In this document: in pieces, positions 17,028 to 24,669 of the stretch
How positions within the stretch are numbered: the stretch's first letter is position 1
Layout: every line of letters begins with the position of its first letter
Source: Escherichia phage WPEC5
Direction: 5' to 3' (one strand)
Length of the DNA: 64,000 bases
Sequence record: PV654397.1
Translations under genes and position numbers: made by a program
The notes under the pieces: generated by a model
Told to the model about the DNA's origin: nothing
Databases searched by the model: none
What the model saw: the letters and a program-made list of their open reading frames with translations, nothing else

Positions 17028-17373
17028 AATTTACCTCGTATGTGTTATAATTCCACGTTTTAACACTATCCATTTGTATATCCTGAACTTCATGGAAATA
17101 TTTAAGTACCTTCTGGTATTCCATTAGTTCGTACACATCGTCAGTATTGACAGTGCTCTCCTGAAACAATTCCTCTTCTGATAAAGTACTATAATCAGGG
17201 ATTTTTATTTCAGAATATATCTCATTCATATATGAATCATTTTGGTAAATCTGTAGATAAAACTGATTATATTCAGGGATATAGGTTACGAAATGGTTCT
17301 TGATGAATTCATATCTTGAAGCAAAGCAATCATTGCCATCCGTCATGTACTGAATTGTTGTTGTATTATGCAT
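17011..17373 (-). CDS. Family A paralog, hypothetical
   Basis: Motif EEELFQESTV. Confidence 0.6.
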   Translation of the reverse strand: MHNTTTIQYMTDGNDCFASRYEFIKNHFVTYIPEYNQFYLQIYQNDSYMNEIYSEIKIPDYSTLSEEELFQESTVNTDDVYELMEYQKVLKYFHEVQDIQMDSVKTWNYNTYEVNYVRND

Positions 17374-17848
17374 TCAAATAATCCACGCATTTATGGTATA
17401 CATCTAAATCTAAAAAGAATCGTTGTTTGTATTTGTAATGATGAAGTAGTGCACCATAAAGTAATATAGCATTAAGTACTTTTGCATCATGAATACAAGA
17501 CCCTTGGAAGTACATTTCTTCTGTCATGAAAACTAACTCATTGTACGGGATAAGCACTGAATCTCTAAATGTATCAATGTTAATCTTCAAATCGGACCCT
17601 TGGCAATATGAAATATATTCACCTCGGTAATGAAAGTCATTATCGTCAAAGTACTCAGCATATACTTGATTGTTCCTATTATTTTTAAAGGCAAGTCTTC
17701 CTTTGGTTGAACTGAATTGGTCATATTGGAACATTCCACCAAAAGGCATTCCACCGAAAGGTTGGGGACTTCTGAACTCCTTTGCAATGCGATGAATGTT
17801 AGATGCAAATTCTAAAACACCATCGTAATCATATTCTGTTGTAATCAT
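17366..17848 (-). CDS. Family A paralog, hypothetical
   Basis: Motif EEMYFQGSCIH. Confidence 0.6.
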   Translation of the reverse strand: MITTEYDYDGVLEFASNIHRIAKEFRSPQPFGGMPFGGMFQYDQFSSTKGRLAFKNNRNNQVYAEYFDDNDFHYRGEYISYCQGSDLKINIDTFRDSVLIPYNELVFMTEEMYFQGSCIHDAKVLNAILLYGALLHHYKYKQRFFLDLDVYHKCVDYLNA

Positions 17849-18324
17849 AGACCATTTTTCTCCATGTACTCAATGATTTCATCTACGAAGTTTAAATCCA
17901 TATAGAATCTATCATTTGCGTCATTGAGTTCATCTTTAAGTACTGTAAAAATTGTAGAACTAAACACGATTCTCTCATTGTACAAAGTACTGTACTGGAA
18001 GAATTCTTCTTCTGATCTAACATTAAATGTGTCATATTCATCATCATCATTAGATCTAGGATGATAGTACTTAAAACTATCAGATGTATGGAAACAATAT
18101 GAGATAAAATCCCCTGATGGTGCATCGTCAAGTACACGAATACCACAGAAATTCTCATCTGTAGTATGCAACAAATTGCTATTCATTGACAAATAATTTT
18201 TGTACGCATAAAGTGTGCATCGTGGGAGAATTATATTCTCTTTAACTGTTACAAAGAACTTATGAAGTTTAATGATATTTTGTGCGATTTTTTGTGCATT
18301 GCTAAATGATAGGTCTTTGGACAT
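17845..18324 (-). CDS. Family A paralog, hypothetical
   Basis: Motifs EEEFFQYSTLY and FYMDLNFV. Confidence 0.6.
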   Translation of the reverse strand: MSKDLSFSNAQKIAQNIIKLHKFFVTVKENIILPRCTLYAYKNYLSMNSNLLHTTDENFCGIRVLDDAPSGDFISYCFHTSDSFKYYHPRSNDDDEYDTFNVRSEEEFFQYSTLYNERIVFSSTIFTVLKDELNDANDRFYMDLNFVDEIIEYMEKNGL

Positions 18325-18383
18325 TGTGATATAACCCTTTACAATTAATATAAAGAGATTATATCACAAAGATTTGGAGGGTG

Positions 18384-18974
18384 TCAAGAGTTCTCACGAA
18401 GTTCTACCATTTCTTTCCATACTAAATGGTAATCTTCTAAGTCCAGATAGAAGTCTTCATTTAAGTGCTCATATAAGTACTTGTACATGAATAGTACACC
18501 TAAATTGTATTCAGTATTAAGTAATGATTGTTGGAAGTAGTTTTCTTCATTTAGTTCTATATCCATGAACTCAAATCTACCTAGACCTTTTAATGTACGT
18601 ATCTCAACATGTGAAGTATCTGTTTTACTGAAGCACATGAATCCACCTCTAAATTCGGGATCATATTCACATTCATACTGTCCACTGTTATTATAGAAAT
18701 CTCTCCCATTTACTTTATCTTTTGGCTTTAGAACTGATACATGAATGTCGTCATCTTTGTACATTGAATGATTTATCTTTTTTAAACATTTTATCTTATT
18801 TTCTTTAATGTACTTGATAATATCAATTATATCTTGTGCAGTACTGATAGCTGCCTCAAACGTATCCAACTTAAGATGATTGTATAGAGTTCCCTCGTTC
18901 TTTATTTTATCTAACATACTAACCTCATAGTTCATACATCTTTGATTTGAATTGCATTGGTCCACCAACTTCAC
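18384..18974 (-). CDS. Family A paralog, hypothetical
   Basis: Motifs EENYFQQSLLN and FYLDLEDY. Confidence 0.6.
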   Translation of the reverse strand: MKLVDQCNSNQRCMNYEVSMLDKIKNEGTLYNHLKLDTFEAAISTAQDIIDIIKYIKENKIKCLKKINHSMYKDDDIHVSVLKPKDKVNGRDFYNNSGQYECEYDPEFRGGFMCFSKTDTSHVEIRTLKGLGRFEFMDIELNEENYFQQSLLNTEYNLGVLFMYKYLYEHLNEDFYLDLEDYHLVWKEMVELRENS

Positions 18975-19263
18975 ATGGATAATTTTCCATAATACGATTC
19001 AAAAGTATCTGGTACTGTTGTAGTACTTCAATTTCCAAATGTATACTACTATCCAGTACTAATGACTCCTGGAACAATTCACCTGTATCTAAACATGAAA
19101 AATCATTTATAGTTAGCATTGGCTTATCATTGGTACGCAATGTAAATGATTCCTCATTTCGGATTAATGTACAGAATTCATTATGTTTTCTGTTATAATT
19201 CATTTTAACCAATAATAACTTAGTGTGAGTTGCGTACATTATTTTTACTAATTCAGTCTTCAT
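18925..19263 (-). CDS. Family A paralog, hypothetical
   Basis: Motif TGELFQESLVL. Confidence 0.6.
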   Translation of the reverse strand: MKTELVKIMYATHTKLLLVKMNYNRKHNEFCTLIRNEESFTLRTNDKPMLTINDFSCLDTGELFQESLVLDSSIHLEIEVLQQYQILLNRIMENYPCEVGGPMQFKSKMYEL

Positions 19264-22853: not shown

Positions 22854-23293
22854 CGTTTGCCCTTATATGCTTCACGTACATATTCATAATCCAAATAAAA
22901 TCTTGTACTATCAATACTTTTAAAGTACCACATAATAACTAAAGTATCTAGTACTTCATCATCATACAAAGTACTATTCTGAAAGTAATACTCTTCACTA
23001 TCCCACGGACCTTTCAGTACTTCAAAGTTCAATTTTAAAGGTCTGCTGCGATTATAAAAACGGATTTCACCACCATAAGCATAACTGATAAATTCTGCAT
23101 CTGGATTGTATTGTGAAAAATCTGCGGGACTTTTGGAATTCAGCCCAAGAATAACTGTAGTTGTGGTAAAATCACTATCCTTGTAGTAGTTACCATTCTC
23201 GGCTTTGTATACTTCTTCGAACTTCCCAGCCTTGATATCTTCAATATATACCTGTAGTTCTTTTGCTTTATCCAGAGCACTTTGTAATGACAT
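22850..23293 (-). CDS. Family A paralog (GPWDSEEYYFQNST subfamily)
   Basis: Motifs SEEYYFQNSTLY, WYFK, FYLDYEYV. Confidence 0.65.
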   Translation of the reverse strand: MSLQSALDKAKELQVYIEDIKAGKFEEVYKAENGNYYKDSDFTTTTVILGLNSKSPADFSQYNPDAEFISYAYGGEIRFYNRSRPLKLNFEVLKGPWDSEEYYFQNSTLYDDEVLDTLVIMWYFKSIDSTRFYLDYEYVREAYKGKR

Positions 23294-23759
23294 TATCTTC
23301 CCCTACAGTATTCTCTACGTATTCATAATCGAAATAGAAACTATCAGAACCAATACTTTTAAAGTACCACATAATTACAATAACATCTAATTCTTCTTCA
23401 TTGTACACAGTACTGTTCTGGAAGTAATATTCTTCACTATCCCACGGACCTTCTAGTACTGAATACGGAATGATTGTGTCATAATCATCGTAATCAGGGC
23501 TGTAAATTATAATATCTTCATCTCTACAATAACTAATGTACTGATTGTACATATGATATTCACAGTCATCAGTATCACCCGTATCAGTGTGTAGTACTAA
23601 TGTTTCTGCACATATCTCTGACTCATCATAATCGTCGCGGTCTTTTACAAAAAATTCAGTATCAGATGTTTTATACACACCAGGCACTGAACCTTCTTGT
23701 ACCATAATCATGTACTCATGAATCTTCTTTGCTTCTTTCAATGCACTTTCTAATGACAT
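23268..23759 (-). CDS. Family A paralog (GPWDSEEYYFQNST subfamily)
   Basis: Motifs SEEYYFQNSTVY, WYFK, FYFDYEYV. Confidence 0.65.
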   Translation of the reverse strand: MSLESALKEAKKIHEYMIMVQEGSVPGVYKTSDTEFFVKDRDDYDESEICAETLVLHTDTGDTDDCEYHMYNQYISYCRDEDIIIYSPDYDDYDTIIPYSVLEGPWDSEEYYFQNSTVYNEEELDVIVIMWYFKSIGSDSFYFDYEYVENTVGEDNVITKCSG

Positions 23760-23761
23760 TA

Positions 23762-24202
23762 CTAATCCCCTGTACTTAAATATTCACATGCTCCCCAGTC
23801 AAGGAAGAAGGGTTCAAAATTCAATTCCTTAAAGTACCACAAAACAACCAAGGAATCAAGCATTTCTTGGTTAAAAATAAGACTCTGTTGGAAGTAATAC
23901 TCTTCAGTACCCCACGGCCCATCAAGTACCCCGAAGTCAACAGGTGTATTTGATGTGTCAAAAGTAATCTTAGTACCTGGAATATATACAAAAAAACTAG
24001 TATATTGACTACATGAAGAGTACTGTATAGTATTGTCTTTATCATGGCCCATAAGTAAAATATCATCAGAGTATGTCTTTATACCTGATAGATAATACTC
24101 ATTACCAAATGCACTTACTTTATCACCATAGAAACCACTTTTTATGTTATCGTGGAAGTGATGTATTTTGTGTGCCAGTTTAAGTGCACTTGCTAAACTC
24201 AT
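23762..24202 (-). CDS. Family A paralog (GPWDSEEYYFQNST subfamily)
   Basis: Motifs TEEYYFQQSLIF, WYFK. Confidence 0.65.
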   Translation of the reverse strand: MSLASALKLAHKIHHFHDNIKSGFYGDKVSAFGNEYYLSGIKTYSDDILLMGHDKDNTIQYSSCSQYTSFFVYIPGTKITFDTSNTPVDFGVLDGPWGTEEYYFQQSLIFNQEMLDSLVVLWYFKELNFEPFFLDWGACEYLSTGD

Positions 24203-24669
24203 ATATCCTCTTTAATAACTCGTAGTAGATCCAAGTCCAGATAGAAGCTAGGACAATCGGTATTATTAAAGTACCACAGAATGACAAGCTTGTCAAGCAC
24301 ATATTCCTCGTAGATAGTATTCTGCTGGAAGTAGAACTCTTCACTTCCCCAGTCATTATCCAGTACTGAATACGGAAGATGTTTCTCTGCTGCACCAGTT
24401 ATAATGTCAGTATATTGTATTAAAATATCAGCATCACGACAGAAGTACATGTAATTATCTTCCAGGTTAACATCACACCCAGTGAGTGTTGTTTCAGAAG
24501 AATCTAAGTTTTCTTCGTACATGTGAATGTACTCACTACTGTCATCGTATATCATTCGACAATAAGCTTTACCTTCCTTGAATAGATACCCATTGAGTTG
24601 ATTGAGTACTATTTCCTTTTTACATAAATCAATTAACTTAGCAATTTCTAATGCTCTTGCAAAACTCAT
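24199..24669 (-). CDS. Family A paralog (GPWDSEEYYFQNST subfamily)
   Basis: Motifs SEEFYFQQNTIY, WYFN, FYLDLDLL. Confidence 0.65.
   Translation of the reverse strand: MSFARALEIAKLIDLCKKEIVLNQLNGYLFKEGKAYCRMIYDDSSEYIHMYEENLDSSETTLTGCDVNLEDNYMYFCRDADILIQYTDIITGAAEKHLPYSVLDNDWGSEEFYFQQNTIYEEYVLDKLVILWYFNNTDCPSFYLDLDLLRVIKEDI

Follow-up and report, generated by a model that had tools for sequence, protein, structure and literature searches.

An F-Q helix motif shared by 44 tandem paralogs of an Escherichia jumbo phage is probably a structural signature and not a viral protease cleavage site

The genome of Escherichia phage WPEC5 (PV654397.1) carries, in the 64,000 nt stretch analysed here (the window), a row of small minus-strand open reading frames (ORFs) between nt 17366 and 24669 whose products share a short motif resembling the cleavage sites of potyviral NIa proteases, such as that of tobacco etch virus (TEV), and of 3C-type proteases. 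The question raised by this locus is whether the motif is a processing site, at which a phage protease releases variable N-terminal domains, as the initial annotation proposed, or an element of the protein core, which it offered as the alternative. The evidence favours the latter: with moderate confidence, we read the motif as the structural keystone of a small, lineage-specific alpha/beta domain that has been amplified by tandem duplication, its residues serving to cap a helix and to build the hydrophobic core.

The interval is 97.7% identical across its full length to Escherichia phage WPEC3, 95–98% identical to seven other coliphages with genomes of 352–386 kb, and 82–90% identical to PBECO4, 121Q, SP27 and others. 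These identities (82–98%) to jumbo coliphages identify the window as part of an Asteriusvirus-type (PBECO4/121Q-like) jumbo myovirus. In the relatives, all genes under the matched interval are labelled 'hypothetical protein'.

The strings in which the likeness was first noticed are all present on the minus strand: EEMYFQGS (17366-17848), EENYFQQS (18384-18974), EEGYFQGS (21653-22099) and SEEYYFQNS, the last in two ORFs (22850-23293 and 23268-23759). The motif occurs in 14 of the 17 minus-strand ORFs of the interval and reaches far outside it. When all minus-strand ORFs of the window were searched with a profile hidden Markov model (HMM) of the motif region, 44 paralogs were found between nt 7241 and 36095 at an E-value of 1e-3 or better (Table 1). 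The family consensus is [ST]-E-E-x-[YLF]-F-Q-x-S-[LT]-[VI]-h-D. Its Phe and Gln are invariant in all 44 copies; a Ser stands two residues after the Gln in 36, and Glu is found five and four residues before it in 33 and 28 copies, respectively. The position before the Phe is Y, L, F or I, while the Ser is followed by [LT], [VIL] and an aromatic residue or His, and then usually by Asp or Asn. Hydrophobic residues are conserved at positions -1, 0, +4, +5 and +6 relative to the Phe. None of the window's 79 ORFs outside the family has the core motif. The pattern [ED][ED]..FQ.S was observed 23 times, always within the family, compared to 0.04 expected from shuffled proteins, an excess that is due to homology and common descent and not to independent occurrences.

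Conservation of such a stretch could in principle be for the DNA and not for the protein, the motif being kept as a promoter, recombination site or RNA signal, and it does recur at the same relative place in each tandem repeat. One copy is even palindromic (GTACTTCC-CTGG-GAAGTAC, 21794-21813). However, synonymous codons are free at the invariant residues (Phe, 25 TTT and 19 TTC; Gln, 28 CAG and 16 CAA), and the conserved Ser is drawn from both of its codon groups (19 AGY and 17 TCN), so conservation acts on the protein. The proportion of synonymous differences (pS) is no lower in the motif (0.32) than in the flanks, and the palindrome is single-copy. The codon data effectively refute conservation at the DNA level, and we regard this explanation as scarcely credible. 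The palindrome itself covers the codons for G-Y-F-Q-G-S-T, has 8 bp arms and was scanned as terminator-like on both strands; it is probably coincidental.

The motif had been placed between a variable N-terminal region and a conserved C-terminal module. The first part of this description holds, as the N-terminal part varies in length from 59 to 164 residues, but the C-terminal module is itself very divergent, with a mean column identity of 16%. Members are 103–212 aa long, acidic (median isoelectric point 4.8, median net charge -8.5), and a crude transmembrane threshold is exceeded by a hydrophobic stretch in only one of the 44. Forty-four ORFs of the window encode proteins of 100–210 aa in which [ST]-E-E-x-h-F-Q-x-S-h-h lies about 36–80 residues from the C-terminus. 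Profiles of the long-type and short-type subfamilies, compared using hhalign, aligned only over 17 residues around the motif (probability 85%), which makes the motif the sole sequence signature uniting an otherwise diverged family. Orthologs in phage ph0011, found for all but three of the 44 members, gave ratios of nonsynonymous to synonymous substitution (dN/dS) of 0.26 for the N-terminal part, 0.16 for the motif (the lowest) and 0.31 for the C-terminal part. Values in this range indicate real genes under moderate purifying selection. Faster evolution of the N-terminal part between orthologs was also considered, and is ruled out by its value being below that of the C-terminal part.

Structure prediction had been suggested as a check on whether the FQ-S bond falls on an exposed linker, and in two AlphaFold models it was placed instead in an ordered helix of a compact domain. 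Model 1, for a long-type protein (22850-23293), was based on a 46-sequence alignment and scored 90.7 in the predicted local distance difference test (pLDDT), with a predicted template modelling (pTM) score of 0.86. It starts with an N-terminal helix (residues 3–21), followed by five strands within residues 47–88 and a short helix (90–94). The motif forms a helix of its own, EEYYFQN (100–106), and the surrounding 10-residue blocks have the highest pLDDT values of the protein (97 and 96). After the motif come a helix (112–126), a strand (132–135) and a further helix (137–146). Model 2, for a short-type protein (25561-25920), was based on a separate alignment with 15 other window paralogs, non-overlapping with that of model 1, and scored 87.4 (pLDDT) and 0.83 (pTM). 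Here, five strands lie within residues 6–58 and are followed by the motif helix AAELFQESLV (66–75), a second helix (84–100) and a strand (109–113); the motif helix begins in a block with a pLDDT of 97, and the next block is at 84. Both models therefore predict a helical motif, in or beside the 10-residue stretch of highest confidence, inside a single compact domain. The 36–80 residues after the Gln contain a strand whose only possible partners precede the motif, so the predicted protein does not consist of two separable domains joined by a linker.

This arrangement argues against cleavage at the motif by a Gln-specific protease of the 3C/NIa-like type (chymotrypsin fold), which would detach the variable N-terminal part from the C-terminal module. 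As limited proteolysis has taught, proteases need extended, accessible segments, and the motif is predicted to be helical, ordered and intradomain in two independent models, not an accessible or extended segment between domains. The residues around the putative scissile bond also speak against it. The canonical TEV sequence ENLYFQ is indeed matched at P6 (E), P3 (Y), P2 (F) and P1 (Q) in 14 of the 44 copies, and members of the Y-containing third of the family share as many as six residues with it, but the full consensus E-x-x-Y-x-Q-(S/G) is matched by only two copies (EEMYFQG and EEGYFQG). 3C-type enzymes, among them the picornaviral and coronaviral 3C/3CL proteases with their Gln-(Gly/Ser/Ala) sites, need a small residue at P1′, and TEV protease, although more tolerant at this position, prefers Ser or Gly. 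Among the 44 copies, P1′ is E in 10, Y in 9, L in 6, Q in 5, N in 4 and M in 3; the small residues Gly and Ala occur there in two copies and one copy, respectively, and Ser in none. It is this lack of Ser, with Gly just twice, that limits the exact TEV consensus to two members. In the copies of Klebsiella phage RaK2 (described below) P1′ is mostly Tyr. The conserved Ser of the family is at P2′, not P1′, and conservation runs on into the hydrophobic P3′–P5′ positions, unlike a linker site.

A cognate enzyme was also sought. To our knowledge, no 3C/NIa-like processing system has been described in tailed dsDNA phages, and the family, in contrast to the substrates of TEV and 3C/3CL proteases, belongs to such a phage, of a bacterial host, and has no annotated cognate protease. 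The annotation table of Escherichia phage fEgEco12, which is 97.6% identical to the window, has no trypsin, chymotrypsin, serine-protease, cysteine-protease or 3C-like entry, several hundred of its hypothetical proteins being unscanned by profile or fold. The proteases that are labelled in fEgEco12 are ClpP-like or T4 gp21-like (Table 1), and gp21-type enzymes cleave after Glu inside proheads. Another entry, g432 (L002 482-1171), labelled 'peptidase', was rejected because it is an Rv2179c-like exoribonuclease and apparently mis-annotated. A close relative has about 487 genes labelled hypothetical or without an assigned function, among which an unrecognised protease could be hidden. No family member is present among the 62 proteins of the phAPEC6 virion proteome, in which no protein between gp347 and gp549 was detected. 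This range includes a member placed there by its name, gp442c, and an ortholog at about 300.5 kb in phAPEC6. Were the motif such a cleavage site, tailed phages would have their first example of 3C/NIa-like processing; the evidence argues against this, and we consider it very improbable.

A structural role for the motif is, by comparison, supported by the predicted models and by the hydrophobic conservation. In the predicted fold, an antiparallel sheet of about five strands leads into the motif helix, which is followed by a longer second helix; at the C-terminus, the chain rejoins the sheet as a strand. The motif helix would begin at the [ST]-E-E(-E) segment, the Ser/Thr acting as N-cap and the acidic residues forming the first turn, while its anchoring in the hydrophobic core would fall to the invariant Phe together with Y/L/F before it and [LT]-[VI]-aromatic after it. 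Y/L, Phe, Ser and Leu/Thr would lie on one face (i, i+1, i+4, i+5) and [VI]-aromatic would prolong the hydrophobic run, a pattern expected of a helix packed on a sheet. The invariant Gln and the near-invariant Ser may be engaged in polar contacts, fully or partly buried, or may belong to a functional patch common to the family.

The family members are probably early, cytoplasmic, host-directed proteins. They would be transcribed early, probably by host RNA polymerase, and the paralogs may be diversified binders serving host takeover or anti-defence, their variable sheet surfaces recognising different targets. The seven best sigma-70-like sites of the array are all on the coding strand, several of them in rare intergenic gaps, including a perfect extended -10 consensus in a 59-base gap (Table 1). 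In another gap, a terminator-like hairpin with a T-run (29961-29982, minus strand) is followed by an 11/12 promoter match (29951-29923). Together, the sites in these two gaps suggest operon boundaries read by host RNA polymerase.

Several observations weigh against this reading, either in its structural or in its functional part. The alignments under both models are shallow (46 and 15 sequences), and the burial of Phe, Gln and Ser is deduced from the helical pattern and the hydrophobic conservation. An invariant Gln and near-invariant Glu-Glu and Ser, in proteins of 16% mean identity, represent polar conservation beyond the usual demands of folding; a function, for example in binding a partner or ligand, is therefore conceivable. 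The total number of promoter-like sites is not above chance, which counts against early expression, and both early expression and a host-directed function are inferred for Asteriusvirus-type phages.

The strength of the polar conservation bears on a second explanation, compatible with the structural one, in which Gln, Glu-Glu and Ser on the conserved helix form a shared docking or ligand-binding surface and the variable remainder selects the targets, as in an adaptor array. Speculatively, its partner could be a hub protein of the host or a factor encoded by the phage, for example the phage Clp ATPase/ClpP; relatives encode a ClpP-like protein (E-value 1.3e-41) and an annotated Clp ATPase of 762 aa. 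The F-Q pair is invariant in 44 window copies and 27 RaK2 copies while the rest drifts until it cannot be aligned, and the low dN/dS of the motif would fit a shared surface. On the other hand, none of the credible homologs (all 49–224 aa) is fused to another domain, and from the conserved hydrophobic pattern around the Gln, a large part of the segment seems to be buried. We put this forward as a tentative alternative only. A more specific version is unlikely, namely that the F-Q helix is a docking module and the 40-plus paralogs an adaptor or decoy array that couples host targets to one machine, such as a phage Clp unfoldase/protease; even less likely is that the motif is genuinely cut by a Gln-specific phage protease that has escaped recognition.

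The structural keystone reading, which we prefer, includes the restriction of the domain to one lineage, and homolog searches are consistent with this. An HMM search of all 1.84 billion representative proteins returned 90 matches at an E-value of 1e-3 or better, nearly all with the motif, and a word-indexed search returned 43 proteins; the homologs from both searches belong to this phage lineage or are unplaced metagenomic proteins. A long match, P0068 (773 aa), has no motif, looks spurious and was rejected. Scans of Pfam, NCBIfam and PADLOC, and a sequence-profile search of the PDB, gave nothing significant for the family. Using Foldseek against BFVD, the only matches at an E-value of 1e-3 or better were hypothetical proteins of the same phage group (including 121Q, SP27 and RaK2); GAP32 and Serratia phage BF appeared with non-significant E-values only. 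Family members match phrog_12674, 9317, 28549, 15629 and 13866 (E-values of about 1e-15 to 1e-89), all of 'unknown function'; with matches down to 1e-89, the sequences are already catalogued. The product of 18384-18974 is about 177 aa in annotated relatives, and has orthologs in 35 phage records. One ph0011 ortholog carries the label 'Phi92_gp213', but the match was not reproduced by tblastn.

The syntenic region of RaK2, which belongs to a different genus, contains 27 members, and F-Q is invariant there too. The gene order is the same as in the window: the array has as neighbours the dam and cytidyltransferase genes and two genes encoding about 290 aa each. In the window, the Dam-type N6-adenine DNA methyltransferase gene (1915-2439, minus strand; Pfam PF05869, E-value 2.3e-32) adjoins the putative cytidyltransferase gene (1385-1918), and this pair borders the paralog array in Escherichia and Klebsiella phages alike. 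Two ORFs of 282 aa each, without a Pfam match, are found at 3684-4532 and 5709-6557 (minus strand), and it is these that are mirrored in RaK2 by the two ~290 aa genes in the same relative position.

Table 1. Members of the F-Q family and associated features in the window, and protease-related genes of phage fEgEco12. Motif coordinates are given in parentheses.
Feature	Coordinates	Strand	Motif	Evidence or label
F-Q tandem array, 44 paralogs among 62 minus-strand ORFs	7241-36095	minus		HMM search, gene spacing
Twelve members below the interval	7241-7741, 8556-9074, 9497-10081, 10670-11221, 11233-11814, 12732-13310, 13297-13881, 14532-15116, 15043-15609, 16132-16626, 16614-17027, 17011-17373	minus		HMM
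Long-type, 160 aa	17366-17848	minus	TEEMYFQGSCIHD (17486-17524)	HMM; phrog_12674, E 4.5e-60, unknown function
Long-type, 159 aa	17845-18324	minus	SEEEFFQYSTLYN (17977-18015)	HMM, PHROG match
Long-type, 196 aa by first start codon	18384-18974	minus	NEENYFQQSLLNT (18513-18551)	HMM; phrog_28549
Short-type, 112 aa	18925-19263	minus	DTGELFQESLVLD (19051-19089)	HMM
Short-type, 119 aa	19253-19612	minus	QEDELFQESLVWD (19391-19429)	HMM
Member, 198 aa	20211-20807	minus	TEENIFQNSLMWD (20388-20426)	HMM
Member, 178 aa	21120-21656	minus	FDEQCFQLSCTEP (21228-21266)	HMM
Long-type, 148 aa, one of two strict TEV-consensus copies	21653-22099	minus	TEEGYFQGSTVYN (21785-21823)	HMM
Long-type, 147 aa	22096-22539	minus	SEDAYFQYSTIYP (22228-22266)	HMM
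Short-type, 104 aa	22539-22853	minus	HESFIFQESLVWD (22638-22676)	HMM
Long-type, 147 aa	22850-23293	minus	SEEYYFQNSTLYD (22961-22999)	AlphaFold model 1
Long-type, 163 aa	23268-23759	minus	SEEYYFQNSTVYN (23400-23438)	HMM
Long-type, 146 aa	23762-24202	minus	TEEYYFQQSLIFN (23870-23908)	HMM
Long-type, 156 aa, Asn replaces conserved Ser	24199-24669	minus	SEEFYFQQNTIYE (24307-24345)	HMM
Short-type, 119 aa	25561-25920	minus	DAAELFQESLVFD (25690-25728)	AlphaFold model 2
Seventeen further members above the interval	24853-25269, 25199-25564, 25917-26342, 27081-27707, 27987-28625, 28715-29323, 29320-29895, 29970-30467, 30774-31343, 31315-31665, 31662-31973, 31963-32469, 32546-33106, 34248-34559, 34569-34919, 35197-35571, 35751-36095	minus		HMM
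Perfect extended -10 sigma-70 consensus (TTGACA, 18 nt spacer, TG, TATAAT)	18358-18387	minus		59-base gap between array genes; consensus match only
Neighbour of the Dam gene	1385-1918	minus		Labelled cytidyltransferase in ph0011 and RaK2
g207, ClpP (fEgEco12)				Labelled 'protease'; Pfam CLP_protease, E 1.3e-41
g214, weakly ClpP-like (fEgEco12)				Labelled 'head maturation protease'
g216 (fEgEco12)				Labelled 'protease'; no Pfam match
Clp ATPase, 762 aa (fEgEco12)				Annotated
g348, T4 gp21-like prohead protease (fEgEco12)				Matched to PDB 5JBL
Location of the ClpP-like protease gene(s) of fEgEco12	L001 544-1239 and L001 4171-4779

The window has a GC content of 29–41%, its long ORFs are nearly all on the minus strand, and no tRNA genes were found in it. 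Genes of the array are closely packed, many with small start/stop overlaps of 1–14 bases. A 200 aa ORF within the array (19618-20220, minus strand) escaped detection with the family HMM. Its sequence is STDEDAMFTNDIT at the place where neighbouring ORFs have STEEGYFQGSTVY, and it may be a degenerate family member in which Gln has changed to Thr and Ser to Asp. Also among the array genes is 9074-9487 (minus strand), the ph0011 ortholog of which is labelled 'putative ADP-ribosyl transferase', a label unconfirmed by Pfam and NCBIfam, neither of which gave a match for the window protein.

A second tandem paralog family follows at 36085-40796 (minus strand), with at least 14 BLAST-linked proteins of about 76–94 aa that share the signature L-G-T-[ND]-x-Q-[ED] near the middle of the protein. 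The AT skew of this region is strong (-0.15 to -0.22). Two 75 aa ORFs within the first array, 20755-20982 and 20924-21151 (YLGTQYQE and FVGSNKQD), look like members of this second family. Further away, a 213 aa ORF (46093-46734, minus strand) has a weak Pfam Pkinase match that is below threshold (E-value 0.005). A ph0011 gene at the far edge of the compared locus is labelled 'protein kinase domain-containing protein' and may be the ortholog of 46093-46734.

The F-Q superfamily occupies about 30 kb, or about 8% of a jumbo-phage genome of 350–380 kb. Phages of Escherichia and Klebsiella both retain it, and its fold, predicted with confidence, matches no solved structure. This makes it a reasonable target for work on host takeover and anti-defence in RaK2-like phages, several of which are under characterisation for therapy. 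On a practical note, as two members carry a consensus TEV site, work with TEV-cleavable tags might cut them if the fold breathes.

The literature searched contained no description of the family, its signature, or the timing of Asteriusvirus transcripts. Tandem paralog expansion is an ordinary feature of jumbo phages, while this family is previously undescribed in that literature. Bacillus phage G carries a zinc-ribbon expansion of about 35 copies (PMC7824862), around 10% of RaK2 gene products are paralogs (PMC3622015), and tandem duplications occur in phAPEC6 (PMC7247149). PHROG divides the proteins among several families, although the motif and models point to a single superfamily. As in other tandem expansions of jumbo phages and large viruses, dozens of divergent, same-strand copies of unknown function are found in one lineage, and their content varies between strains. 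What sets this family apart from those expansions is a predicted fold without a significant PDB match, and a signature of its own, the F-Q helix.

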